Position numbers and translations under genes: made by a program. Source: Escherichia phage vB_EcoM-pEK20. From it: a DNA stretch of 64,000 bases. The notes below the pieces were generated by a model. It searched no databases and was not told where the DNA came from. It saw only the letters and a program-made list of their open reading frames with translations. Of the stretch, positions 8,889 to 63,695 are shown piece by piece. The stretch lies in the sequence record MZ868638.1. One strand, 5' to 3'. How positions within the stretch are numbered: the first letter of the stretch is position 1; each line of letters starts with the position of its first letter.

Positions 8889-9362
8889 ATGATTATCAAT
8901 GAAAACTCTTGGCACTTTAAAATTTATGCCGCGTTCAATAGTACATGGAATCGCCCGAAAACGTTGTGTGCTTATTTTTGGAAAACGTTAATCCCGGTAT
9001 TGGCTGTTTCAATTATTGGATTTGCGATTTTAGCAGCAGTCGTAATCATTGGCCAGGAAATTTTAACTAAATTCTTTGTTTTTAGCAGTCTATGGACATT
9101 AGTTCCAGCCTCAATTGGCGTAGGCATTTTAATGGTAGCAGTCATGGCTTTTATTGCTACCGGGTTGGTAATTGGCCCGTCTTGGCTGTTAGACAAATAT
9201 AACGACAGAAAATATTATAAAGAAATTGAGCTCATTGCGCAAAACCAAGAACGAATTAAAAATGGACTAGAGCCTATTGAACGTAAGAAATCATTAATAG
9301 GTGAATACCTTAAAGCTCGTAAAGAAAAAATCTGTCCTACTCTTGAATATAAGGCTAAATGA
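8889..9362 (+). CDS. Integral membrane protein (about 3 TM segments)
   Basis: Long hydrophobic stretches in translation. Confidence 0.4.
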   Translation: MIINENSWHFKIYAAFNSTWNRPKTLCAYFWKTLIPVLAVSIIGFAILAAVVIIGQEILTKFFVFSSLWTLVPASIGVGILMVAVMAFIATGLVIGPSWLLDKYNDRKYYKEIELIAQNQERIKNGLEPIERKKSLIGEYLKARKEKICPTLEYKAK

Positions 9363-10348
9363 TGAAAACGATTGTTAAGGCTTACTTTGGTAGCCATCTT
9401 TATGGAACGTCTACTCCTGAATCTGACATCGATTTTAAAGAAATTTATGTCCCTCATGCTCGTGATATCTTGACCGGTAACGTTAAAGAACACATGAGCA
9501 AGAACACGAATAACACATCTTCTAAGAACACAAAAGACGACGTGGACCATGAGTTGTATAGTCTCAAATATTTCTTTAAACTAGCTGCAGATGGCGAAAC
9601 CGTCGCATTAGATATGCTTCACACTCCACCAAGTTTAGTAGTTAAATCTGATTTGCCTGATGTATGGAAGTATATTCAAGATAACAGGTCTCGTTTCTAT
9701 ACCACTAACATGAAATCTTATTTAGGGTATGTCCGTAAGCAAGCTTCTAAATACGGTGTCAAGGGTTCTCGACTGGCTGTTCTTCGTCAAGCCCTTAAAC
9801 GTTCTAATGAATGGGGACAATACTTTGATAATGGTGCAGTAATTCGTTTATCACATATGAAGAATGTTCTGCCTGTAGGTGAATTTGCTTCGTGGATTGA
9901 AACTGAAAACGAGAAAACAGGTAAGCAAACATTCTATAATCTGTTAGACCGTAAATTCCAAGACACGTTAACCAATAAAGAGTTCAATGCCATCCTGGTT
10001 AAACTGGAAGAGAACTATGGTGAACGTGCTCGTAAGGCAGAAGCTAACGAAGGTATTGATTGGAAAGCATTGAGTCATGCATGTCGTGGTGGACTTCAAC
10101 TATTAGAAATTTATAAAACCGGCGACCTGGTTTACCCACTTCAGGATGCTCCATTTATTCTCGATGTTAAGCTCGGTAAACATACGTTTAAAACTGTACA
10201 AGAATTCCTAGAAGATATCGTCGACCAAGTTGAACATGCGTCAGAACAAGCTGCCAAGAACGGTATGCAACAAAAAGTAGATATGAGTTTCTGGGATGAT
10301 TTCCTTGAACAAGTCTATCTCGAAAATCATAATTCTTACTATAAATAA
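9359..10348 (+). CDS. Pol-beta-superfamily nucleotidyltransferase-fold protein
   Basis: FGSHLYGTSTPESDIDF fits the GS-x(9-13)-DxD nucleotidyltransferase signature. Confidence 0.45.
   Translation: MMKTIVKAYFGSHLYGTSTPESDIDFKEIYVPHARDILTGNVKEHMSKNTNNTSSKNTKDDVDHELYSLKYFFKLAADGETVALDMLHTPPSLVVKSDLPDVWKYIQDNRSRFYTTNMKSYLGYVRKQASKYGVKGSRLAVLRQALKRSNEWGQYFDNGAVIRLSHMKNVLPVGEFASWIETENEKTGKQTFYNLLDRKFQDTLTNKEFNAILVKLEENYGERARKAEANEGIDWKALSHACRGGLQLLEIYKTGDLVYPLQDAPFILDVKLGKHTFKTVQEFLEDIVDQVEHASEQAAKNGMQQKVDMSFWDDFLEQVYLENHNSYYK
10340..10347 (+). promoter_or_regulatory. Candidate T4 late promoter TATAAATA
   Basis: Exact TATAAATA 33 nt upstream of ORF 10380. Confidence 0.35.
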
Positions 10349-33066: not shown

Positions 33067-35778
33067 ATGAAAGAATTTTACTTAACGGTTGAACAGATTG
33101 GTGATTCAATTTTTGAACGTTACATCGATTCTAACGGTCGTGAACGTACTCGTGAAGTAGAATATAAACCATCACTGTTTGCTCATTGTCCAGAAAGTCA
33201 GGCTACGAAATATTTCGATATCTACGGTAAGCCGTGTACTCGTAAGTTGTTCGCCAATATGCGTGATGCCTCCCAATGGATTAAACGCATGGAAGATATC
33301 GGACTTGAAGCACTTGGCATGGACGATTTCAAATTGGCGTATTTGTCCGACACTTATAACTATGAAATAAAATACGACCATACAAAAATTCGTGTGGCTA
33401 ACTTCGACATCGAAGTAACATCTCCAGATGGGTTCCCTGAGCCATCACAAGCAAAACATCCGATTGATGCTATCACTCATTATGACTCAATTGACGACAG
33501 GTTCTACGTATTTGACCTTTTGAATTCTCCATACGGTAATGTAGAAGAATGGTCTATCGAAATTGCGGCTAAGCTTCAAGAACAAGGTGGTGATGAAGTT
33601 CCATCCGAAATTATCGATAAAATCATTTATATGCCGTTTGATAACGAAAAAGAATTGTTGATGGAATATCTCAACTTCTGGCAACAGAAAACTCCTGTCA
33701 TTTTGACTGGATGGAACGTTGAGTCATTTGATATTCCATATGTGTATAACCGAATCAAGAATATTTTTGGCGAATCTACTGCGAAACGTTTATCACCACA
33801 TCGTAAAACTCGTGTTAAAGTTATCGAAAACATGTATGGTTCTCGTGAAATCATTACATTGTTCGGTATCTCTGTTCTTGATTACATTGACCTTTACAAA
33901 AAATTCTCTTTTACCAATCAACCATCATATTCTCTGGATTACATTTCAGAATTTGAATTGAACGTTGGTAAACTGAAATATGACGGCCCTATTTCTAAGC
34001 TTCGTGAAAGCAATCACCAACGATATATTTCTTATAACATTATCGACGTATATCGTGTATTGCAAATTGACGCTAAGCGTCAGTTCATCAACTTGAGTTT
34101 GGACATGGGTTATTATGCTAAGATACAGATTCAATCTGTGTTTAGCCCAATTAAAACATGGGATGCTATTATTTTTAATAGCCTTAAAGAGCAGAACAAG
34201 GTGATTCCACAAGGTCGTTCTCACCCGGTTCAACCTTATCCAGGCGCTTTTGTTAAGGAACCTATTCCAAATCGGTACAAATATGTAATGAGTTTCGACC
34301 TTACATCTCTGTATCCAAGTATTATTCGCCAAGTGAATATTAGCCCAGAAACAATAGCAGGAACGTTTAAAGTAGCTCCATTGCATGATTATATTAACGC
34401 TGTTGCTGAACGTCCTTCTGATGTGTACAGTTGTTCTCCTAACGGCATGATGTATTATAAAGACCGTGACGGTGTTGTTCCAACTGAAATCACTAAGGTC
34501 TTTAATCAACGTAAAGAACATAAAGGTTACATGCTTGCAGCTCAACGTAATGGTGAAATAATTAAAGAGGCATTGCATAATCCTAATCTTTCTGTTGACG
34601 AACCATTAGATGTTGATTATCGTTTCGACTTCAGTGATGAGATTAAAGAAAAGATTAAAAAGTTGTCTGCTAAATCTCTTAACGAAATGTTGTTTAGAGC
34701 TCAACGTACTGAAGTTGCAGGTATGACTGCCCAAATTAACCGTAAATTGCTTATCAACTCACTTTATGGTGCACTTGGCAACGTTTGGTTCCGTTATTAT
34801 GATTTGCGTAATGCTACTGCAATCACAACATTCGGGCAAATGGCTTTACAGTGGATTGAACGTAAAGTTAATGAATATTTGAATGAAGTTTGTGGCACAG
34901 AAGGTGAAGCTTTCGTTCTTTATGGTGATACAGACTCTATTTACGTATCTGCTGATAAAATTATCGATAAGGTTGGTGAATCTAAATTCCGTGATACCAA
35001 CCATTGGGTAGACTTCTTAGATAAGTTTGCACGTGAACGTATGGAACCAGCTATTGATAGAGGTTTCCGTGAAATGTGTGAATACATGAACAATAAACAA
35101 CACTTAATGTTCATGGACCGAGAAGCTATCGCTGGGCCTCCACTCGGTTCTAAAGGTATTGGTGGATTCTGGACTGGTAAGAAACGTTATGCATTAAACG
35201 TGTGGGATATGGAAGGTACTCGTTACGCTGAGCCTAAACTCAAAATCATGGGTCTAGAGACTCAGAAATCTTCGACTCCTAAAGCAGTACAGAAAGCTCT
35301 TAAAGAATGTATTCGTCGTATGCTTCAAGAAGGTGAAGAATCATTACAAGAATATTTTAAAGAGTTTGAAAAAGAATTCCGTCAATTGAATTATATTAGC
35401 ATCGCGTCGGTATCTTCTGCGAATAACATTGCTAAATATGATGTAGGTGGATTCCCTGGTCCCAAATGCCCGTTCCATATTCGTGGAATTCTGACGTATA
35501 ACCGGGCTATCAAAGGTAATATCGATGCACCACAAGTTGTAGAAGGTGAAAAAGTATATGTTCTGCCTTTACGTGAAGGAAACCCATTCGGTGATAAATG
35601 TATCGCATGGCCTTCTGGTACTGAAATCACAGATTTAATTAAAGACGATGTACTTCATTGGATGGACTACACTGTTCTCCTTGAGAAGACATTTATTAAA
35701 CCACTTGAAGGATTCACATCAGCAGCGAAACTCGATTACGAGAAGAAAGCATCTCTGTTCGATATGTTCGATTTTTGA
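33067..35778 (+). CDS. 43: DNA polymerase (family B)
   Basis: 903 aa; matches RB69 gp43 (MKEFYLTVEQIGDSIFERYIDSNGRERTREVEYKPSLFAHCPESQATKYFDIYGKPC...) as recalled; motifs DIE exonuclease, YGDTDS. Confidence 0.97.
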   Translation: MKEFYLTVEQIGDSIFERYIDSNGRERTREVEYKPSLFAHCPESQATKYFDIYGKPCTRKLFANMRDASQWIKRMEDIGLEALGMDDFKLAYLSDTYNYEIKYDHTKIRVANFDIEVTSPDGFPEPSQAKHPIDAITHYDSIDDRFYVFDLLNSPYGNVEEWSIEIAAKLQEQGGDEVPSEIIDKIIYMPFDNEKELLMEYLNFWQQKTPVILTGWNVESFDIPYVYNRIKNIFGESTAKRLSPHRKTRVKVIENMYGSREIITLFGISVLDYIDLYKKFSFTNQPSYSLDYISEFELNVGKLKYDGPISKLRESNHQRYISYNIIDVYRVLQIDAKRQFINLSLDMGYYAKIQIQSVFSPIKTWDAIIFNSLKEQNKVIPQGRSHPVQPYPGAFVKEPIPNRYKYVMSFDLTSLYPSIIRQVNISPETIAGTFKVAPLHDYINAVAERPSDVYSCSPNGMMYYKDRDGVVPTEITKVFNQRKEHKGYMLAAQRNGEIIKEALHNPNLSVDEPLDVDYRFDFSDEIKEKIKKLSAKSLNEMLFRAQRTEVAGMTAQINRKLLINSLYGALGNVWFRYYDLRNATAITTFGQMALQWIERKVNEYLNEVCGTEGEAFVLYGDTDSIYVSADKIIDKVGESKFRDTNHWVDFLDKFARERMEPAIDRGFREMCEYMNNKQHLMFMDREAIAGPPLGSKGIGGFWTGKKRYALNVWDMEGTRYAEPKLKIMGLETQKSSTPKAVQKALKECIRRMLQEGEESLQEYFKEFEKEFRQLNYISIASVSSANNIAKYDVGGFPGPKCPFHIRGILTYNRAIKGNIDAPQVVEGEKVYVLPLREGNPFGDKCIAWPSGTEITDLIKDDVLHWMDYTVLLEKTFIKPLEGFTSAAKLDYEKKASLFDMFDF

Positions 35779-35818: not shown

Positions 35819-36454
35819 ATGAAAACTACTCCTATTACTATCGCTATTGACGCAATCATAAAACAAGCTTCTTCTTTGGCCGCTATGGCCAAAGTAATTA
35901 GTCAAAACCCTGCTCGTTATAATGCTATTCTAGAAACTCTTCGACGCCCGGGACTTAGTAATTATGAAAGTCGTGTAATTATTACAGGTGTGGGTAAGAA
36001 TGCTAATATTGCAACTAAAGCTTCTGAGACATTTGCTTCACTTGGTATCCCGAGTATGTACTTGAACACCGGGCATTATTCTCACGGTGATGCAGGATTC
36101 ATTGCGCCTAATGATGTGTTGATTCATATTAGTCGTTCTGGTAAAACTGAAGAAATGATAGGCGTGGCTAAGCATCTTAAAATGATTCGTCCGAACGTCA
36201 AACAGATTCTGTTGCATTGTAACCCAGACATTCCACAAGAAAATGAAGCCCTTTTTGATTACTCTTTCTGTACAGGCATCGCAGTAGAGGTTGATGAGAA
36301 TTCTCTGGCTCCGACTATGTCCACTACATTGTTGTTAGCGCTTATCGATACGTTTGCTATCAACCTTTCGTCTGAACGTGGATTTACCTCTAATGACTTC
36401 CTTAAGTTCCACCCTGGCGGTGCACTAGGTGCCATGTTACGAGGCGAACAATGA
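35819..36454 (+). CDS. SIS-domain sugar-phosphate isomerase, KdsD/GutQ-like (D-arabinose-5-phosphate isomerase family)
   Basis: GVGKNANIATKASETFASLGIPS...HGDAGF...HISRSGKTEE...LAPTMSTT...RGFTSNDFLKFHPGGALG parallels the E. coli KdsD SIS domain motif for motif. Confidence 0.75.
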   Translation: MKTTPITIAIDAIIKQASSLAAMAKVISQNPARYNAILETLRRPGLSNYESRVIITGVGKNANIATKASETFASLGIPSMYLNTGHYSHGDAGFIAPNDVLIHISRSGKTEEMIGVAKHLKMIRPNVKQILLHCNPDIPQENEALFDYSFCTGIAVEVDENSLAPTMSTTLLLALIDTFAINLSSERGFTSNDFLKFHPGGALGAMLRGEQ

Positions 36455-36635: not shown

Positions 36636-38324
36636 ATGAAAAAAGCTGTTATTCTTGGTGCTGGACTGGCAACTCGTTTGTATCCAATAACGCATCATAT
36701 TCCTAAGGTGCTTGTTAACTATAAACAAGACACTATTCTGAGCAATTTGTATACAATTTATTCTGACCTTGGCGCAGATGAAATTATTGTAGTAGTTCAT
36801 TCAAAATTTGCTGAAACTGTTCGAGCTTATTGTGAGCAAGAAGGGTTCAATGTGACTATTCGTACAGTTGATGAAGCGTATGGTTCCGCTTATGCTCTTG
36901 CTAAATTACACAAAGATTTAGACGGCCATAATGTAATTGTTAACTGGTGTGATATTATTCCCGATTTTGGTTCATGGTCTTGGAATGTTAACGCAATCTA
37001 TGTTAAGGGCGACGAATGTCGTTATAATTTCGACGGTGAAAATATCACTAACGTAGGTTCAACAGGTGGTAATGTTGTAGGAATTTATCAGTTCAAAGAC
37101 TGGGAATTCTATATGGGTTCTACTGATGAGGAAATTCATGAATACTGCAAAGGACGTGATTTCGTAGAATTCCTTTACGGCAGCGCATTCAATAAATCAG
37201 AGCTTATGAATATCATCGACCTTGGTGATATGCCTAAACTTGAAAAAGCTCATGAAGTTCGTGAACTTAATCGTAGTTTTAATGCAGTTGAAATTGGCGA
37301 AGAAACGGTAACAAAGATTGCTTTAACAGAACAGGGCGTTGCACTTCAAAAAGATGAAGTCAATTGGTATAAGAAAGTTAAATCAGATTCAGTTCCACGG
37401 ATTGTAAGTTATCATCCTGGCGGCCACTTTATTATGGAACGCATTAAAGGTAAGCCAGCATTTGAATATATTAAATCCAAATCGAGTCTTGCTCGTCCAC
37501 AAATTGTTGATGCAATTTTAGACGCACTGAAATTCAGCACAGACACTTATTTTGTAAGTCCTGAAACTGTTCGTCGTGATTTCACTAAAGAATTCTATAC
37601 GAAAGTTATTGATCGTTGTGAAAGTATTCAACCATTGATTGATTCATTTGGTAAAATCACACATGTGAACTACACTAAGATTGGGCGTCTGAAGCCAATG
37701 CTGAAACAAGCTTTAGAACACCTTATTCGTTATCATAACCGTTCTCAGGGACAGTACTCTGTTATTCATGGTGACCCGAACTTCAGTAATACTATGATTA
37801 CTGATAATGGTGAAGTCAAGTTTATCGACCCTCGTGGATATTTTGGTGAAACCAAGATTTATGGGCCAAAATTGTATGATGAAGCTAAAGTGCTTTATGC
37901 TGTTTCAGGTTATGATGAATTCAACGCTAATCCGACCTGGGGTCAGTTTACTATTGATGAAACAACTTGTAATGTGACTATTAACATCAATCCATTAGTT
38001 TACAAATATGGAAAGATGAGTTCGTTTAATGAGTATCATCATTTGGCTGTAGCAATTATCTGGATTGCATTAGGTGGTTATTTCAAGAATAATCCACTTA
38101 AAGCGGTAGCCGCATATTATAAAGGTATGGAACTTCTGACTAAGCAATTACGTAACATGGGCCGTGTACTTCAGGACGGCACTATTAGTTATGATGTAGC
38201 AGAACCTGTAACGGCTACTCTGATTACAAAAAATCCTGGTAAATGGGTACTAACTGATAAAGAAACTGGTGTTTCTTATCGTCCAATCGGTGGCGATATC
38301 ACTCATCAATGGGAACGAATCTAA
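36636..38324 (+). CDS. Bifunctional sugar-1-phosphate nucleotidyltransferase (N-term) / APH-like sugar kinase (C-term)
   Basis: N-term KAVILGAGLATRLYPIT...PKVL is the GxGTRLxPxT nucleotidyltransferase signature; C-term IHGDPNFSNTMI plus KFIDPRGYFG is the HGDxxxxN / D-x-G catalytic pair of APH/choline-kinase-fold kinases. Confidence 0.7.
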   Translation: MKKAVILGAGLATRLYPITHHIPKVLVNYKQDTILSNLYTIYSDLGADEIIVVVHSKFAETVRAYCEQEGFNVTIRTVDEAYGSAYALAKLHKDLDGHNVIVNWCDIIPDFGSWSWNVNAIYVKGDECRYNFDGENITNVGSTGGNVVGIYQFKDWEFYMGSTDEEIHEYCKGRDFVEFLYGSAFNKSELMNIIDLGDMPKLEKAHEVRELNRSFNAVEIGEETVTKIALTEQGVALQKDEVNWYKKVKSDSVPRIVSYHPGGHFIMERIKGKPAFEYIKSKSSLARPQIVDAILDALKFSTDTYFVSPETVRRDFTKEFYTKVIDRCESIQPLIDSFGKITHVNYTKIGRLKPMLKQALEHLIRYHNRSQGQYSVIHGDPNFSNTMITDNGEVKFIDPRGYFGETKIYGPKLYDEAKVLYAVSGYDEFNANPTWGQFTIDETTCNVTININPLVYKYGKMSSFNEYHHLAVAIIWIALGGYFKNNPLKAVAAYYKGMELLTKQLRNMGRVLQDGTISYDVAEPVTATLITKNPGKWVLTDKETGVSYRPIGGDITHQWERI

Positions 38325-38710
38325 TGCACCGTGTAGAAAACATGCTTAATCTTTGTTTTGATGTCGATGATTGTATAACAGAGTGGAATAACAACCGTGA
38401 TTACGTGAACTTCAAACCAGACGTCGAAATGGTGACTGCCATTAATGCCCTGTACGATGCAGGGCATACCATAACGCTTTACACTGCTCGCGGTATGAAG
38501 TCAGTCGGTCCTGGTCGTATAGCAATTGACATTCTCCCAAGTCTGATTCAGAACTTGGCAAACATTGGATTGAAGTACCATAATTTGCTAACACATAAAC
38601 CAGTATATGATTGGATTATCGACGACAAAGCTATGCGTCCTGACGAATTCAAAGCTCTTATGAATAAAGGCGAATTCGAAACATTTAAATCGTATAAACC
38701 GAATCTATAA
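38324..38710 (+). CDS. HAD-superfamily phosphatase, KdsC-like
   Basis: FDVDDCIT (KdsC FDVDGVLT), TLYTAR, IIDDKAM (motif IV DD); start 38324 overlaps upstream stop, alternative 38309. Confidence 0.6.
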   Translation: MHRVENMLNLCFDVDDCITEWNNNRDYVNFKPDVEMVTAINALYDAGHTITLYTARGMKSVGPGRIAIDILPSLIQNLANIGLKYHNLLTHKPVYDWIIDDKAMRPDEFKALMNKGEFETFKSYKPNL

Positions 38711-38766
38711 TAATTTAAGTAAGACCTGCAAAAACCATCGCGTCAATTAACGTGAGATGCAAAAAA

Positions 38767-39927
38767 ATGAATACTTTTAAAATCGGAACGAATTTTGATT
38801 TAGCTCTTCTTGATAAAATCGTAGAGCTCAATAAAACTTATCCTAATAGCTTGATAAACGAAGTATACGGCTCTACAAGAGAAATGGCTTTTGTAGCAGC
38901 CAGACCTGATTTTAGGCTTCCTGACGTTGACAAAAAGATGTTAGAAGATTACGTTAAACGTTGTAACGAATTAGGTATTTGCTTTAACTATACACTCAAC
39001 ACGATAAATCCTGGTTCAAAAAGAGAACTAGTTGAGTGGAAGAAGAAAGCTATTCAGGATTATGTTCAGTATCTTTGGTCAATAGGCGTATGGCGTATTA
39101 CTATCGCTAACCCTGTTGTTATGGAAATTGTTCGTGAAGTCAATAAAGACATTGAGATTGAAGTTTCAACAATTCTACATGTCGATGCTGTAACTCAAAT
39201 CAAATACTTGCATGACCAGTATAATATCAAAAAGGTCTGCTGTGGAATTCATAAGAACCGTTCGGTTTCTTTCCTGAAGCGTGCAGCAGAGTTTTGCAAT
39301 AAGAACAATATAATATTTGAAGTTCTTGTAAATGAGTTCTGTTCTAATGCTGGTAAAGGGTATACAACACATTGTAGCTATCGTGACTCTTGCTATATTT
39401 TCCATAGTACTGATGTTACCGCTGATGATGCTAAATCCTTAAATGGATATCCAATGCAACACTGCATTAAAGCTCGTGATACAGATCCATTTAACTGGTT
39501 GAGAACTCGTTTTGTTCGTCCTCAAGATTTGAAACTTTATAATGATATTGGTATCACTCAATTCAAAGTTTCAGGACGTACAGGTAGCACAGACTACATT
39601 TTGAAAGTTCTTGAAGCTTATGCTTCCGAAAAATTTGAAGGTAATTTGTTGGAATTGTGGAAGCCTTTAGAGACCATTTTCACTCTTGAAAATGAGACCG
39701 AGTTTTCACATACGGTAAATATTGAAACCTCTTTGTTAGATGGCTTTTTAGAAAAAAGGTGGTTCAGACATCCAGATTTCGATTGTGCTAATGAAATCTG
39801 TGGGACGACGTGTACATATTGTGAAAGATATTATAAACGTCAATTATCTAAAAATGGGTTATCAGAAAACTCTATATCTATTATTGATATAACTAACTCT
39901 GACGACGCTTTGAGGTACCCAGAATGA
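38767..39927 (+). CDS. Cys-rich enzyme of unknown family (possible Fe-S/metal-binding)
   Basis: Central Cys cluster KVCCGIH...EFCNKNN...EFCSNAGKGYTTHCSYRDSCY and C-terminal CANEICGTTCTYCERYY; fold not assignable by eye. Confidence 0.4.
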   Translation: MNTFKIGTNFDLALLDKIVELNKTYPNSLINEVYGSTREMAFVAARPDFRLPDVDKKMLEDYVKRCNELGICFNYTLNTINPGSKRELVEWKKKAIQDYVQYLWSIGVWRITIANPVVMEIVREVNKDIEIEVSTILHVDAVTQIKYLHDQYNIKKVCCGIHKNRSVSFLKRAAEFCNKNNIIFEVLVNEFCSNAGKGYTTHCSYRDSCYIFHSTDVTADDAKSLNGYPMQHCIKARDTDPFNWLRTRFVRPQDLKLYNDIGITQFKVSGRTGSTDYILKVLEAYASEKFEGNLLELWKPLETIFTLENETEFSHTVNIETSLLDGFLEKRWFRHPDFDCANEICGTTCTYCERYYKRQLSKNGLSENSISIIDITNSDDALRYPE

Positions 39928-40206
39928 TTTCTAGAAAAACTTTTAACCACCAACTTAATGAAGAGATTTTGACTATGAAAATTAACAGCAACGAACAAAT
40001 TCTTAAAAAGGCCCTTATGGGCCTGTTTGAAACCAAAGCGGCTTAAAGTGATTAAAGAACCTGTTCAATTGTAATACTACGCTGATGCATTTCTTCATAG
40101 TGTCCTTGGAAGTATCGATGCCGAAGCTCTACGTTATATCAACATCGCTAAGAAATTCAAATAAGCTTTATGAATTGAGTATATAATAAATTGTATTGAG
40201 GTAAAC

Positions 40207-40923
40207 ATGGGAAAACATAACACAATGAAATATATTAAAGCCGCAGATTTTCAATCCGCATTTAAAGCTGTCAATCGTGAAATTTTAGAAAACCCGGAAT
40301 TCGTAACTGATTCTCGTATTGGACGTTGTAATGAAATTGGGTCTATGACAGTAGTTGTTGACACTCCATCATCATTCAAAATGACCGACCCACGTATTAA
40401 CCGCATCTCTTATGAATATGCTGAAGACTTCTGGAAGTTTATGGTTTCTGGTGGTACTGATGCAGAAGAAGCATTTAAGGCATATCCTAACGTTGCTAAA
40501 TTTATTTCTAAACCTAAATCAGACGCTTTGCCTGCAAACTTCAACACTTTCTACGGTCCACGAATTGCGGCCCAATTACCAGCTCTTTTAAAAGAACTTA
40601 AAGAGAAGCCTAACTCTCGAAGAGTTGTGTTTCAAATTCTTGAAAGTTCTGATCAGGCTTTGCTTGATTCGGACGAAACGCTTGAATATCCATGTACTGA
40701 CTCAGTGACTTATTATATTCGTGATGGTAAGCTTTATACCCACTGCCATATGCGTTCTCAGAACTGTGCTGTTGTTATGCAGTTGGATTTTTATCTCCAA
40801 GGAAAATTACTTCATTATATCGCTAACGAATGTGGTGTAGAAGTTGGTGATTATACTCATACCATGGTAAGTGCCCATGTGTTTGAACGTGATTTTGATT
40901 ATGTTAAAGGATTCCTTGACTAA
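40207..40923 (+). CDS. 42: Thymidylate-synthase-fold pyrimidine hydroxymethylase (gp42-like, divergent)
   Basis: KPNSRRVVFQIL (TS NPxSRR), YPCTDSV (nucleophile PC), MRSQNCAVVMQLD (TS RSxD...N/D specificity position is Asp); position equals T4 gene 42. Confidence 0.65.
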   Translation: MGKHNTMKYIKAADFQSAFKAVNREILENPEFVTDSRIGRCNEIGSMTVVVDTPSSFKMTDPRINRISYEYAEDFWKFMVSGGTDAEEAFKAYPNVAKFISKPKSDALPANFNTFYGPRIAAQLPALLKELKEKPNSRRVVFQILESSDQALLDSDETLEYPCTDSVTYYIRDGKLYTHCHMRSQNCAVVMQLDFYLQGKLLHYIANECGVEVGDYTHTMVSAHVFERDFDYVKGFLD

Positions 40924-41822
40924 TGGCTATTTTCCGCGTACCTATCTTGAGTATGCGGTCTTATGAAACTGGACAGTATGCTATCCTTAAGGATGGCAAC
41001 TTCCAACTTCATTTGCACCGTGCTAATCCAGGTGATGTGATTACATATCCACGTAATGCATCTGATATTAAAGAATGTGAACGTCTTTTCCCAGAATTTA
41101 AGTTTGTTCCATTATGGTATAAAGATAACGCGTATAACACTCGTAAATATTTCTGGTCTGAAAATGAATTTGTGGTTGATTCATTAATTGCTTATTATGA
41201 TTGTGATTTTCTAATAACAGATATCACTGGATATGATGGTGCTTTTGATGTAGAATTCAATTTCAATATCACCGCAGACCCTAATAAACCGCGTTTTTAT
41301 ATTGACGAATTCTTAAAAACCGACATGTTGTCGGTTAATCGTTCACTTCAAACTACTGTGTTGAATGAACGTCAAAAGGAAGTGCTGGTTAACGCTGGTG
41401 CGGATGGTAATAAGATTATCGTAACGCAGAAAGTTATACGTCCTTCCATCATGCAGCGTCTTGTAGGTGATTTGGCTCCTATTCATCTAGATGGTATTTT
41501 TCATCCATTTCGAATTAGTGACCCGTGCTATCGTTTTGAACAAGTGGTTGAATGTGCAATTCAATTAGGCCAACCGCTTTATATAACCGATCCAAATAAT
41601 AGCTTCGACAGAAATAAGTATCCTGAAGAAGCGCTGATTCGAATTTTTAAACCAACTAAAACCGAGTACTATCAAATTCTTAAAGGACGTCCAAAGATTC
41701 AATATTTCGAAAATCCTGAAGAAGTATTCCATCCAGGTCTTGGTGAGTTCATCTACTTTAATGCTTTAATTTCTTCGCCGTATAATATACCTAAATACGA
41801 AGATGTCGTAATCGAGGAATAA
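40923..41822 (+). CDS. Hypothetical protein at the T4 beta-gt position
   Basis: 299 aa; no motif I can assign. Confidence 0.35.
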   Translation: MAIFRVPILSMRSYETGQYAILKDGNFQLHLHRANPGDVITYPRNASDIKECERLFPEFKFVPLWYKDNAYNTRKYFWSENEFVVDSLIAYYDCDFLITDITGYDGAFDVEFNFNITADPNKPRFYIDEFLKTDMLSVNRSLQTTVLNERQKEVLVNAGADGNKIIVTQKVIRPSIMQRLVGDLAPIHLDGIFHPFRISDPCYRFEQVVECAIQLGQPLYITDPNNSFDRNKYPEEALIRIFKPTKTEYYQILKGRPKIQYFENPEEVFHPGLGEFIYFNALISSPYNIPKYEDVVIEE

Positions 41823-41823
41823 A

Positions 41824-42372
41824 ATGGCTAAAATTATTTTAGTAGATGGCCCGGATAATGCTGGTAAAACAACTTTCATTAATGACATAATGGAAATTAG
41901 TGAAAGATATGTAAAGATTGATTTCCCTAAACGAACGGTTGATGGACGTTTCGATGTTAAGTCTCGAAATGAAGTTGGCTGTTTCGAAACGATGCTGAAT
42001 TATTTAGACCCTACTAAGATTTATCTGTTAGATCGTGGATATATTAGTAACTGGGTTTACGGACGTATTCGACAAGATGCGGACTCGGTTCTTGACGTTT
42101 ATGAACAGGATTATGTTCGTCTTTGCCAAAACCATGATGTGTTCACAATTATTTTAACACGTAACGAAATGACTGAAAGTTTTGAAGACGACCTTATTAC
42201 TTTGTCTTCATTCGGTTTTAATACAGTAATTTCATATTTTGAAGAGTTTGCAATCCATAACGAAATCCAAACGTATCAATTACTTAATCATGATGGTGCT
42301 AACAAAGTTATAGGATTTAATGCAAGCGAACGTAATAATTTGATTACAGAAATTATCAAATGGGCTCGTTAA
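41824..42372 (+). CDS. Tmk-like P-loop nucleoside monophosphate kinase
   Basis: IILVDGPDNAGKTT Walker A and LLDRGYISNWVYG resemble thymidylate kinase DRY motif region. Confidence 0.45.
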   Translation: MAKIILVDGPDNAGKTTFINDIMEISERYVKIDFPKRTVDGRFDVKSRNEVGCFETMLNYLDPTKIYLLDRGYISNWVYGRIRQDADSVLDVYEQDYVRLCQNHDVFTIILTRNEMTESFEDDLITLSSFGFNTVISYFEEFAIHNEIQTYQLLNHDGANKVIGFNASERNNLITEIIKWAR

Positions 42373-42471
42373 GAGCCTGTTTAAAGTTTTAAATGCTGTA
42401 TAACCCTTAGTATATAATCGTCTTATCTTTTAAACATGAGTAAAATATAATGATGCCTATGGAAAAATACA

Positions 42472-43644
42472 ATGTCTGATTTAAAATCTCGTCTGATTAA
42501 AGCTTCTACTTCTAAAATGACTGCAGACTTGACTAAGTCTAAGTTGTTTAATAATCGCGATGAAGTCCCTACTCGTATTCCGATGTTGAATATTGCATTA
42601 GGTGGTGCACTGAATGCTGGGTTGCAATCAGGCTTAACTATTTTTGCTGCTCCTTCTAAACACTTTAAAACGTTGTTTGGACTGACCATGGTTGCAGCAT
42701 ATATGAAGAAATATAAAGATGCAATTTGTTTGTTCTATGATTCAGAATTTGGTGCTTCAGAATCTTATTTTCGTTCGATGGGTGTTGATTTAGACCGTGT
42801 AGTTCATACTCCGATTCAATCTGTCGAACAACTTAAAGTTGATATGACTAATCAGCTTGACGCGATTGAACGCGGTGATAAAGTTATTATCTTTATCGAT
42901 TCAATTGGTAATACTGCATCTAAGAAAGAAACCGAAGATGCGTTGAACGAGAAAGTTGTAGGTGATATGTCTCGTGCTAAGGCACTTAAATCTCTGTTCC
43001 GCATTGTGACTCCTTATCTGACTATTAAAGATATTCCGTGTGTTGCAATCAACCATACAGCAATGGAAATTGGCGGACTATATCCTAAAGAGATTATGGG
43101 TGGTGGTACAGGTATTCTTTACTCTGCTAACACTGTATTCTTTATCTCTAAACGTCAGGTTAAAGAAGGTACAGAATTGACCGGTTATGACTTCACGTTG
43201 AAAGCAGAAAAATCTCGTACAGTTAAAGAGAAATCTACTTTCCCAATCACAGTCAATTTCGATGGCGGTATCGACCCATTCAGTGGCTTGTTAGAAATGG
43301 CAACTGAAATTGGTTTTGTAGTTAAGCCTAAAGCCGGGTGGTATGCTCGAGAATTCCTTGACGAAGAAACAGGCGAAATGATTCGTGAAGAGAAATCATG
43401 GCGTGCTAAAGCTACTGATTGTGTAGAATTCTGGGGACCGTTGTTTAAACACAAACCTTTCCGAGATGCAATTGAAACTAAATATAAACTAGGTGCTATC
43501 TCTTCTATTAAAGAAGTCGATGACGCTGTTAACGACCTTATTAATTGCAAAGCAACAACTAAAGTTCCGGTTAAAACTTCTGATGCTCCGTCTGCAGCAG
43601 ATATAGAAAACGACCTTGACGAAATGGAAGATTTCGATGAATAA
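42472..43644 (+). CDS. uvsX: RecA-like recombinase UvsX
   Basis: 390 aa; RecA core motifs, matches T4 UvsX. Confidence 0.9.
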   Translation: MSDLKSRLIKASTSKMTADLTKSKLFNNRDEVPTRIPMLNIALGGALNAGLQSGLTIFAAPSKHFKTLFGLTMVAAYMKKYKDAICLFYDSEFGASESYFRSMGVDLDRVVHTPIQSVEQLKVDMTNQLDAIERGDKVIIFIDSIGNTASKKETEDALNEKVVGDMSRAKALKSLFRIVTPYLTIKDIPCVAINHTAMEIGGLYPKEIMGGGTGILYSANTVFFISKRQVKEGTELTGYDFTLKAEKSRTVKEKSTFPITVNFDGGIDPFSGLLEMATEIGFVVKPKAGWYAREFLDEETGEMIREEKSWRAKATDCVEFWGPLFKHKPFRDAIETKYKLGAISSIKEVDDAVNDLINCKATTKVPVKTSDAPSAADIENDLDEMEDFDE

Positions 43645-62594: not shown

Positions 62595-63695
62595 ATGAAA
62601 GTTATGTTTATCCCATCTCGTGCAGTCCCATTTAATCCTGACCGTGTACAAGGTGGTCTTGAAGCAGTACATTTAAATGTGTTGAAATATCTTGTGTCCA
62701 TCGGTGCTGATATTGATTATATCGGCTTTGATAATGACACGTTTGGTGACTGGAAAGTTACACACCATCCTGTTGGTCATCTGACTAAATTTAGTCTAGG
62801 TATGAGTTATACTATGGCTCGTAAGATTGTTGAACTAGCCGGCATCCATGAATACGATTTTGTTGTTACTATGGAACCGACTAAACTAACCGTTCAGGCA
62901 ATTAAAGACGCAGGTCTCTCTAAAGTTCATAAGAATTTTATGGCAACACCATTTGAACCGGTATCTCGTGGCATTGTTCAAATTTGGGACCAGACTATTC
63001 AAATTCATAAGAATGGTGGTAAGAGTTATGCTCCTACTAAAGCCTTCCGTGAATTTGAACGCAAATATTGTTATATGACTTCAGGTCTGACTGACAAAAT
63101 TGATTATGATTATTGGCGAGCAAATCCGTTGTTTGAAGCCGAAGATTATCCGGTTATTTGTTTGAATGAGAAACCTGAAGTTCTTCCGGCGACTGATCTG
63201 ATTATTAGTGCACAACGTTATGACACTAAAATGCGTCGTACTGATGTTGCTCTTGAAGCGATTAAAGCACTAGGCGAAAATGGTGTAGGATACTGTCCAA
63301 GCAAATGGGCACCACCAGCTAAATATCCTGTTATTATTGATGCTCCACACAGTGAAATCATGGAACGTCTTAAAACAGCTAAAGCGCTTATTAATACGTG
63401 TCCTGACACAGGTACGGTAGAGAATAGTTCTATTGAAGCCATCTCTAAAGGTGTCCCTGTAATCCAGTTAGTTTTTAAGGATTATCCTCATGCGACATTC
63501 GAATACGACCCAGATACTGTGCGTGTAGAAATTGATTCCTCTACTCCTAAGAAAGAAGTAGTTGCGCTTTACACAAAAGCTGTATTAGAATTCACTGACA
63601 CATACGAAGCTCGAGTTAAACGTGCTGAAGCAGTATGGAAGAAGTATAACCGAGATGCAGTTGTTGCGATGTGGGATAAAATCTTCACAGCGTAA
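62595..63695 (+). CDS. GT-B fold glycosyltransferase (candidate hydroxymethyl-cytosine sugar transferase)
   Basis: N-terminal Rossmann-like beta-strand/Gly loop and E-x7-E-like region SIEAISKGVPVI; sits between gene 39 and rIIA.1. Confidence 0.55.
   Translation: MKVMFIPSRAVPFNPDRVQGGLEAVHLNVLKYLVSIGADIDYIGFDNDTFGDWKVTHHPVGHLTKFSLGMSYTMARKIVELAGIHEYDFVVTMEPTKLTVQAIKDAGLSKVHKNFMATPFEPVSRGIVQIWDQTIQIHKNGGKSYAPTKAFREFERKYCYMTSGLTDKIDYDYWRANPLFEAEDYPVICLNEKPEVLPATDLIISAQRYDTKMRRTDVALEAIKALGENGVGYCPSKWAPPAKYPVIIDAPHSEIMERLKTAKALINTCPDTGTVENSSIEAISKGVPVIQLVFKDYPHATFEYDPDTVRVEIDSSTPKKEVVALYTKAVLEFTDTYEARVKRAEAVWKKYNRDAVVAMWDKIFTA

Follow-up and report, generated by a model that had tools for sequence, protein, structure and literature searches.

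The DNA of phage RB69 contains arabinosylated 5-hydroxycytosine (5hoC), with the sugar held through an ether link, and not arabinosyl-5-hydroxymethylcytosine (PMC13326640). RB69 gp48 and DLP3 gp80, which share a D169N/N177D signature, are flavin-dependent synthases of 5-hydroxy-deoxycytidine monophosphate (5-hydroxy-dCMP) (Lee et al., NAR 2026, PMC13326640). The same study lists a further gene of the cytosine-arabinosylation cluster, RB69p045 in RB69 and gp78 in DLP3, as a ‘nucleotide kinase’ in its Table 1, on structural grounds only. A survey from 2021 had already placed RB69p045 among ‘homologs among thymidylate kinases’ and described the product as a thymidylate kinase homolog that is presumably involved in modification (PMC8056088). 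Here we analyse the same gene (NP_861735.1 in RB69) in a 64,000-nucleotide stretch of Escherichia phage vB_EcoM-pEK20 (sequence record MZ868638.1), referred to below as the window, where it occupies positions 41824..42372. The gene product is therefore already in the literature as a putative nucleotide kinase (2021, 2026) and the observation itself is not new, while the published role is a prediction.

It took until 2025–2026 for the pathway to arabinosylated 5-hydroxycytosine DNA to be worked out. The pathway bears on which phages suit therapy and on how phages resist CRISPR, restriction enzymes and glycosylase defences. The kinase and a U32-family protein are the conserved genes of the cassette whose roles are predictions. 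The substrate of the kinase would decide whether these phages need a dedicated 5-hydroxy-dCMP kinase, and whether the first sugar goes on before or after replication; if the protein were merely a redundant deoxynucleoside monophosphate (dNMP) kinase, the gene would be a matter of routine annotation.

Several described enzymes can be set beside the window kinase. Thymidylate kinase (TMPK, EC 2.7.4.9; human, yeast, vaccinia A48R and Mycobacterium tuberculosis) shares with it the fold, the P-loop Asp, an FPxR-like motif and a D-R pair. Unlike TMPK, to which it is less than 20% identical, the window kinase does not reach the Pfam and TIGRFAM thresholds, has Glu/Asp in place of the Arg that binds thymine O4, carries no catalytic Arg in either the P-loop or the LID, has an acidic F-x-D-D in the LID and a deletion covering helix alpha2 and the start of alpha3, and is encoded within a cytosine-modification cassette. 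The gene 1 dNMP kinase of T4 (gp159 in RB69) is also a phage-encoded acidic P-loop kinase, and it feeds modified dNMPs to replication; its phosphorylation of 5-hydroxy-dCMP (PMC13326640) is the activity proposed here for the window kinase. The 5-hydroxymethyluracil DNA kinases (5-HMUDK; M6 gp54 and ViI gp67) are likewise small phage P-loop kinases encoded in hypermodification clusters next to a thymidylate synthase homolog, and both they and relatives of the window kinase occur fused to HhH glycosylase-fold domains. M6 gp54, however, has neither the D-R pair nor the P-loop Asp and is basic (isoelectric point (pI) 8.66, against 4.74 for the window kinase), and 5-HMUDK creates a leaving group on DNA, a chemistry that O-glycosylation does not need.

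An initial annotation of the window described the gene as an extra Tmk-like kinase inside a hydroxymethylase cluster, dedicated either to the modified nucleotide or to the sugar-nucleotide route. We find that it encodes a P-loop kinase of TMPK-type fold, with residues like those that hold a nucleoside monophosphate (NMP), and that it is linked to a 5-hydroxy-dCMP synthase through different gene orders in different phages. The reading that we favour, and hold to be evenly poised between right and wrong, is that the protein acts in the 5-hydroxycytosine pathway, phosphorylating free 5-substituted dCMP, and is not an enzyme of the sugar route.

Conservation and fold of the kinase

41824..42372, + strand: kinase open reading frame (ORF), ATG to TAA, 182 aa, TMPK-fold P-loop kinase; ortholog of RB69p045 and DLP3 gp78
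41814..41826, + strand: junction between the first arabinosyltransferase gene (GT1) and the kinase gene, read from the sequence; GAGG ribosome-binding site 41814-41817, GT1 TAA 41820-41822, kinase ATG 41824-41826

Only 1 base separates the GT1 stop codon from the kinase ATG, so that the two genes are packed in an operon-like manner, as with coupled translation. All genes from DNA polymerase (33067..35778) through uvsX (42472..43644) lie on this one strand (+). The 7.7 kb around the ORF are 97–98.5% identical to more than 150 genomes of Mosigvirus, the RB69 group, with phage HY126 at 98.3%, and the kinase itself has 180 of its 182 residues (99%) in common with RB69p045. By tblastn it is present in 343 phage records, 152 of them with at least 95% identity, and a family profile recovered 310 cluster representatives at E<=1e-3 among 1.84 billion proteins. 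Given these matches and the near-identity to RB69p045, the kinase gene is not a chance ORF. It is also an extra kinase, as had been proposed: gene 1 (gp159) lies at another place in the RB69 genome, and the two are unrelated in sequence. Gene 1 is absent from the window and has no sequence similarity to the kinase ORF, which, lacking both sequence and close structural similarity to gp1, falls outside the T4 gene 1-type dNMP kinases (Pfam PF21448).

Searches with single sequences and curated models did not place the protein. In Pfam there was P-loop noise only and no match to PF02223 at E<=0.1; TIGR00041 gave 15.6 bits, confined to the P-loop and below the curated TMPK cut-off of 83.25; and phmmer against the PDB sequences returned chance matches, with no TMPK below E 0.05. 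Because Pfam, NCBIfam and phmmer went no further than the P-loop or chance, the assignment needed the fold and profile-profile comparison. PHROG 761, ‘thymidylate kinase’, matches the protein at E 5e-45. An AlphaFold model made from 20 homologs reached a pLDDT of 88 and a pTM of 0.84, with confidence dropping to a pLDDT of about 66 at residues 121-130, and Foldseek searches of this model against the PDB and against viral models agree on a TMPK-type fold. In hhalign, the kinase profile aligned with four TMPKs over 141 columns (Prob 94%, E 1.3e-7), and a wide family of 49 members aligned with them at Prob 96.9% and E 1.9e-10. A profile search of the PDB sequences aligned the F34-P35-K36-R37 region with vaccinia TMPK (2v54) at E 0.003. 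The protein thus has the P-loop NMP kinase fold of TMPK type. Structure prediction, which had been suggested as a check on the initial annotation, gave a kinase fold, and the description as a Tmk-like P-loop kinase is upheld by the predicted fold, the profile-profile comparison and the motif pattern.

5-HMUDK was considered as the closest family and rejected: hhalign of the wide family to M6 gp54 covered 30 P-loop columns only, the alignment with the narrow family placed F-E-G of gp54 opposite D-R-G, and the net charges are of opposite sign.

Active site

Residue counts were taken by column from an alignment of 49 family members, with identity down to about 20%, and equivalences to TMPK from hhalign.

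41848..41871, + strand: Walker A / P-loop G9-P-D11-N-A-G14-K15-T16; G9, G14 and K15 each 49/49, D11 46/49
41923..41934, + strand: F34-P35-K36-R37, aligned with FPER/FPQR of human/vaccinia TMPK (acceptor phosphate-binding Arg); K36 39/49
41962..41973, + strand: S47-R48-N49-E50, aligned with human S73-A-N-R76
42031..42060, + strand: D70-R71-G-Y-I-S75-N76-W-V-Y79, corresponding to the ‘DR(Y)’ catalytic motif of TMPK, with S-N and Tyr after it
42160..42198, + strand: R113 and acidic F120-E-D122-D123-L-I at the TMPK LID position; R113 42/49, D122 48/49, D123 43/49

The family has both the acidic residue that binds the 3'-OH in Walker A and the D-R motif of TMPK, with Gly as the third residue of the latter. 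D11 aligns with human TMPK D15, the P-loop Asp that contacts the 3'-OH of the dNMP. D70 and R71, each found in 49/49, align with human D96-R97, and the ‘DRY’ region of the initial annotation should be read as D-R-G-Y (LLDRGYISN). Beyond it, position 75 is Ser or Thr in 47/49, position 76 Asn or Asp in 49/49 and position 79 Tyr in 47/49; S75 aligns with human S101 and Y79 with F105, the counterpart of Y79 being Phe in the human enzyme and Tyr in those of yeast, E. coli and M. tuberculosis. The M. tuberculosis motif is DRYVASNAAY, so the S-N...Y that follows D-R is common to both proteins. In TMPK structures the residues aligned here contact the sugar at its 3'-OH and its 2' position, the base at its edge and at thymine O4, and the phosphates, including that of the acceptor; the Tyr equivalent to Y79 sits against the 2' position of the deoxyribose. 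As read from these alignments, the motifs are those expected of an enzyme that binds a 2'-deoxynucleoside monophosphate in free form.

Position 50 separates the family from TMPK. E50 falls opposite the Arg that binds thymine O4, which is R76 in the human enzyme and R74 in that of M. tuberculosis. All four TMPKs in the alignment have this Arg, and the family has Glu or Asp here in 31/49 and Arg in 0/49. E50 is probably the equivalent of the thymine-O4 Arg; as the alignment identity is low, the equivalence is probable and not certain. An acidic residue at this position would suit the 4-amino group of cytosine.

Other differences lie around the phosphates and the base. Position 12 is Asn in the window kinase, Asn or Gly in 38/49 and Arg in 2/49, and basic residues are absent from the LID segment 114-128, so the kinase has neither the P-loop Arg of a type I TMPK nor the LID Arg of a type II TMPK. 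The F120-E-D122-D123-L-I segment is specific to the family and has no TMPK counterpart, and Asn133 occurs in 45/49 members. About 17 residues that lie over the base in TMPK, in helix alpha2 and at the start of alpha3, have no counterpart in the family.

The charge of the protein resembles that of an enzyme of free nucleotides. The window kinase has a pI of 4.74 and a net charge of -10 at pH 7, close to the RB69 gene 1 kinase, which acts on free nucleotides (pI 4.75, net -14), whereas two proteins acting on DNA, the 5-HMUDK M6 gp54 (pI 8.66, net +2.7) and T4 beta-glucosyltransferase (beta-GT; pI 9.05, net +6), are basic. All 20 close relatives of the kinase checked are acidic too (pI 4.65-5.83), and so, strongly, are GT1 and all 13 of its orthologs checked (pI 4.7-5.8, net -8 to -18). 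Net charges are +0.6 and -7.7 for DLP3 gp76 and gp77, which act on DNA, and near neutral, at -2.7, for a second glycosyltransferase of the window (62595..63695). M6 gp51, a DNA-acting transferase, is also acidic, and net charge is thus weak evidence; the acidity of GT1 compared with T4 beta-GT is weakly suggestive of an acceptor other than DNA for the first sugar.

The cassette and its gene order across phages

40207..40923, + strand: thymidylate synthase homolog, ortholog of RB69 gp48, flavin-dependent 5-hydroxy-dCMP synthase, not hydroxymethylase
40923..41822, + strand: GT1, first arabinosyltransferase, 299 aa, ortholog of RB69 gp46:47; PHROG 3891
35819..36454, + strand: arabinose-5-phosphate isomerase, from Pfam/PHROG matches and the annotation of near-identical phages
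36636..38324, + strand: bifunctional nucleotidyltransferase / APH-like kinase, AfhE homolog, from Pfam/PHROG matches
38309..38710, + strand: HAD phosphatase, AfhF homolog, from Pfam/PHROG matches
38752..39927, + strand: U32-family protein, from Pfam/PHROG matches
62595..63695, + strand: second glycosyltransferase, 366 aa, 3' of the topoisomerase II large subunit, at the position of RB69 gp3

The neighbour of the kinase is not the hydroxymethylase that the initial annotation had assumed. The product of 40207..40923 matches PDB entries 9iqc/9ir2/9iqu at E 2.5e-162, and its segment HMRSQNCAVVMQLD (MRSQN...D) carries both D169N and N177D (E. coli ThyA numbering), so that it is a 5-hydroxy-dCMP synthase. 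With this synthase adjoining the kinase, 99% identity of the kinase to RB69p045 and 98.3% identity to HY126 over 7.7 kb, the gene belongs to the 5-hydroxycytosine arabinosylation cassette. The ortholog of GT1 is assigned as arabinosyltransferase 1 in Table 1 of PMC13326640, and RB69 gp3, whose position is described in PMC13326640 and PMC13390438, is the predicted arabinosyltransferase 2. Work on phage HY126, cited in PMC13326640, has reported the activities of AfhE and AfhF; the order of the sugar route is the isomerase, the C-terminal kinase of AfhE (arabinose-5-phosphate to 1,5-bisphosphate), the AfhF phosphatase and the N-terminal uridylyltransferase of AfhE. The U32 protein is labelled only ‘sugar or heterocycle reductase’ in PMC13326640.

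The kinase and the synthase occur in nearly equal numbers of records for each host genus. By tblastn the synthase is present in 400 phage records, and the numbers of records with kinase and with synthase are 176/176 for phages of Escherichia, 15/15 for Shigella, 9/9 for Enterobacter, 9/9 for Serratia, 7/7 for Proteus, 25/26 for Klebsiella and 57/63 for Acinetobacter. Among 20 Straboviridae loci the cassette is complete, with the kinase in one of two positions, after GT1 or after the HAD phosphatase. Overall the kinase adjoins the 5-hydroxy-dCMP synthase and/or GT1 in four gene orders, and it does so in distant metagenomic phages too: each informative metagenomic context has it beside a synthase of the MRS(Q/N)N...D type and/or a GT1 homolog, in further orders, as HAD-synthase-GT1-kinase, as isomerase-AfhE-HAD-synthase-kinase-GT1, or as a fusion of synthase and kinase. 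GT1 is the gene that most constantly adjoins the kinase in our synteny tables. T4, which makes 5-hydroxymethylcytosine, has 42, beta-gt and segA at the syntenic pol-uvsX locus and no such kinase.

Kinase-like genes also occur near other synthases. In two other phage contigs, more distant TMPK-like P-loop proteins (L029:8001-8543 and L030:6170-6673) lie 1-2 kb from thymidylate synthase homologs of the RSCD...D type, in which D169 is kept and N177D is present, as in dCMP hydroxymethylases; other enzymes that modify dCMP may likewise come with dedicated TMPK-like kinases. Rhizobium phage RL38J1, with hexosylated 5-hydroxycytosine, has two kinase-like genes near its synthase (L004 2948-3511 and 6748-7383), an arrangement that parallels that of Mosigvirus. 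Of these gp219 is annotated as a dNMP kinase, and gp214, listed as a ‘nucleotide kinase’, is a P-loop protein encoded after the synthase and a glycosyltransferase that is a remote GT1 homolog. We considered gp214 as an ortholog of the window kinase and rejected it, as hhalign covered 27 P-loop columns only and D-R is absent. Since this orthology is unsupported, the proposition that the kinase follows the base and not the sugar cannot rest on RL38J1.

Substrate of the kinase

The sections above show the ORF, its conservation, its fold and motifs, and its gene linkage; how it would catalyse, on which acceptor and to what advantage for the phage is inferred as follows. The gene product would be a soluble, acidic, ATP-dependent kinase of TMPK fold and a fixed part of the cassette that replaces cytosine with glycosylated 5-hydroxycytosine. 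It would bind free 5-substituted dCMP supplied by the adjoining synthase, either 5-hydroxy-dCMP or, less likely, its O-arabinosylated form, and transfer the gamma-phosphate of ATP to the 5'-phosphate of this substrate. The resulting diphosphate would be converted by the host NDP kinase to the triphosphate used by the phage polymerase, so that the kinase would parallel, or unload, the gene 1 dNMP kinase. Of the two roles offered by the initial annotation, dedication to the modified nucleotide is the better supported, by the TMPK fold, the residues that would hold a dNMP, the acidic charge and the synthase linkage that persists through reshuffling, though the nucleotide would be 5-hydroxy-dCMP or a derivative of it in place of hydroxymethyl-dCMP.

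Several points weigh against this assignment. The most direct is that gp159, the product of RB69 gene 1, phosphorylates 5-hydroxy-dCMP in vitro to give the diphosphate, and that gp159 and the synthase together suffice to place 5-hydroxy-dC in E. coli plasmid DNA (PMC13326640); as gp159 already carries out this step, a second kinase is not required for it. The catalytic Arg of TMPK is missing both from the P-loop, which has Asn12, and from the acidic LID, and the match of E50 to R76 comes from profiles of less than 20% identity. Morganella phage vB_MmoM_MP1 retains an intact kinase ortholog between pol and uvsX (NC_031020.1 20500-21030; L023, L031) with 54% identity and all motifs, in the local order pol, two small ORFs, kinase and uvsX, while tblastn over the first 150 of its 163 kb found no homologs of the synthase, GT1, AfhE, HAD, U32 or isomerase genes. 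MP1 is listed as a phage without known base-modification enzymes (PMC8056088). Either the cassette has been deleted recently in MP1 or the kinase serves some purpose beyond the pathway; like RB69, MP1 carries a gene 1 kinase at another place in its genome. Several relatives of the kinase (314-357 aa) are fusions with a C-terminal basic domain of pI about 9.5 that gives a weak Pfam match to the DNA-glycosylase-like HhH-GPD family, which hints at work on or near DNA. Such fusions lie directly 3' of a D169N/N177D synthase in P0059 (L005:8001-9074), P0060 (L007:1446-2390) and P0065 (L008:127-1092), and their C-terminal domain has no BLASTP similarity to the M6 amino-acid:DNA transferase gp51. We found no assay of the kinase in a partial coverage of the literature, in which an earlier assay could have been missed, and no essentiality data for it in a phage transposon sequencing preprint that used Bas46.

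The protein could be an ordinary housekeeping kinase of dTMP, dUMP or dCMP, in keeping with the database name ‘thymidylate kinase’ and tied to the cluster by position only. The TMPK fold, the retention of the gene in MP1 apart from any 5hoC genes and the fact that many phages have a TMPK of their own fit such an enzyme. Against it stand position 50, where an Arg that is invariant in TMPKs is never found in the family, the failure to reach the curated TMPK models, and a linkage to the D169N synthase that recurs in unrelated gene orders and distant phages. Moreover, dTMP and dGMP are already served by the gene 1 kinase of these phages, and phosphorylation of dCMP would counter the exclusion of cytosine from phage DNA. 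We regard a housekeeping role as unlikely, if not negligibly so. The retention of a second kinase would be accounted for if gene 1 handled 5-hydroxy-dCMP and the window kinase a nucleotide that had already been glycosylated: GT1 would arabinosylate 5-hydroxy-dCMP before replication, the window kinase and not gene 1 would phosphorylate arabinosyl-5-hydroxy-dCMP, and the polymerase would incorporate the product. The synthase, GT1 and kinase form the conserved core of the cassette, with the kinase ATG one base past the GT1 stop; the 17 residues deleted relative to TMPK, in helix alpha2 and the start of alpha3, are ones that cover the base; and GT1 orthologs are more negative (net -8 to -18) than T4 beta-GT (+6), DLP3 gp76 (+0.6) or gp77 (-7.7), though acidic M6 gp51, acting on DNA, makes this weak evidence. 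Individual DLP3 glycosyltransferases were inactive on 5hoC-DNA with UDP-arabinose, and the experiments of that study cannot tell arabinosylation of the mononucleotide from a post-replicative first arabinosylation, although they do show 5-hydroxy-dC entering E. coli DNA without GT1 (PMC13326640). With T-even glycosylation post-replicative in all characterised cases, and MP1 having the kinase and no GT1, we think arabinosylation ahead of replication unlikely. If it did take place, bare 5-hydroxycytosine would never be exposed in phage DNA. That base is a mutagenic lesion, excised by the host endonucleases III and VIII.

Action on DNA itself, in the manner of 5-HMUDK, with the cytosine 5-hydroxyl or a hydroxyl of the attached sugar phosphorylated in the polymer, has a precedent in P-loop kinases whose target is a base in DNA and which frequently occur fused to or paired with HhH glycosylase-fold transferases (PMC8989533). 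The HhH-GPD-like fusions within 5hoC-type clusters and a weak profile similarity to M6 gp54 (Prob 81-90%) point the same way. This similarity is, however, confined to the P-loop, gp54 has F-E-G where the family has its invariant D-R, and the P-loop Asp, which binds a free 3'-OH in TMPKs, is kept in the family and replaced by Asn in gp54; the strong acidity of the window kinase is also unlike gp54. The virion DNA of RB69 and DLP3 has ether-linked arabinosylated 5hoC and no phosphorylated base has been reported in it (PMC13326640), and UDP-arabinose can donate its sugar without a phosphorylation beforehand; we consider a DNA kinase unlikely. The second role offered by the initial annotation, a kinase of arabinose or arabinose phosphate on the way to UDP-arabinofuranose, gains something from the constant company of the isomerase, AfhE and HAD genes in Straboviridae, but every step from ribulose-5-phosphate to UDP-arabinofuranose is already assigned to these three (HY126, as cited in PMC13326640). 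The active site has the motif pattern of an NMP kinase, with K36-R37 where hydroxyl kinases have a catalytic Asp/Glu, and across phages the most constant neighbours of the gene are the synthase and GT1 and not the sugar genes; a place in the sugar route would therefore be very surprising. A kinase of free 5-substituted dCMP remains the reading that we prefer.

Further observations on the cassette

The metagenomic locus with the first of the fusions given above (L005) has a gene for an NADPH-dependent FMN reductase (9068-9613) after the fusion, with an isomerase and an AfhE homolog nearby. The reductase could supply reduced flavin to a flavin-dependent hydroxylase.

U32 proteins such as RlhA, TrhP and UbiU/V are O2-independent, prephenate-dependent hydroxylases, and prephenate is the product of chorismate mutase. 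In Marfavirus BM7 an 81-aa type II chorismate mutase is encoded 3' of the U32 gene (L003:7688-7933; Pfam CM_2, E 3.3e-9, above threshold), and ORFs homologous to it occupy the matching relative position in ten other loci (L015-L022, L027, L028). A U32 protein together with a chorismate mutase may provide an anaerobic route to 5-hydroxycytosine, complementing the O2- and flavin-dependent synthase. In the window we sought a chorismate mutase ORF 3' of the U32 gene and found none. What lies between the U32 and synthase genes is a broken ortholog of RB69p049 (39924..40165, + strand; 79 aa in RB69), with an extra T near 40035 that shifts the frame and a G-to-T change that gives TAA, leaving an ORF of 40 aa. 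Either the gene has become a pseudogene or the sequence contains an error. RB69p049 has no similarity to the chorismate mutases at the equivalent position in other genera.

A scan of 35.5-42.6 kb for promoters and terminators gave no more sites than shuffled sequence. Between the kinase stop codon and uvsX (42394..42418, + strand) there is a TGCTGTA with one mismatch to the T4 MotA-box core TGCTTTA, followed 12 nt later by TATAAT (42413-42418), in the layout of a T4 middle promoter that presumably serves uvsX.

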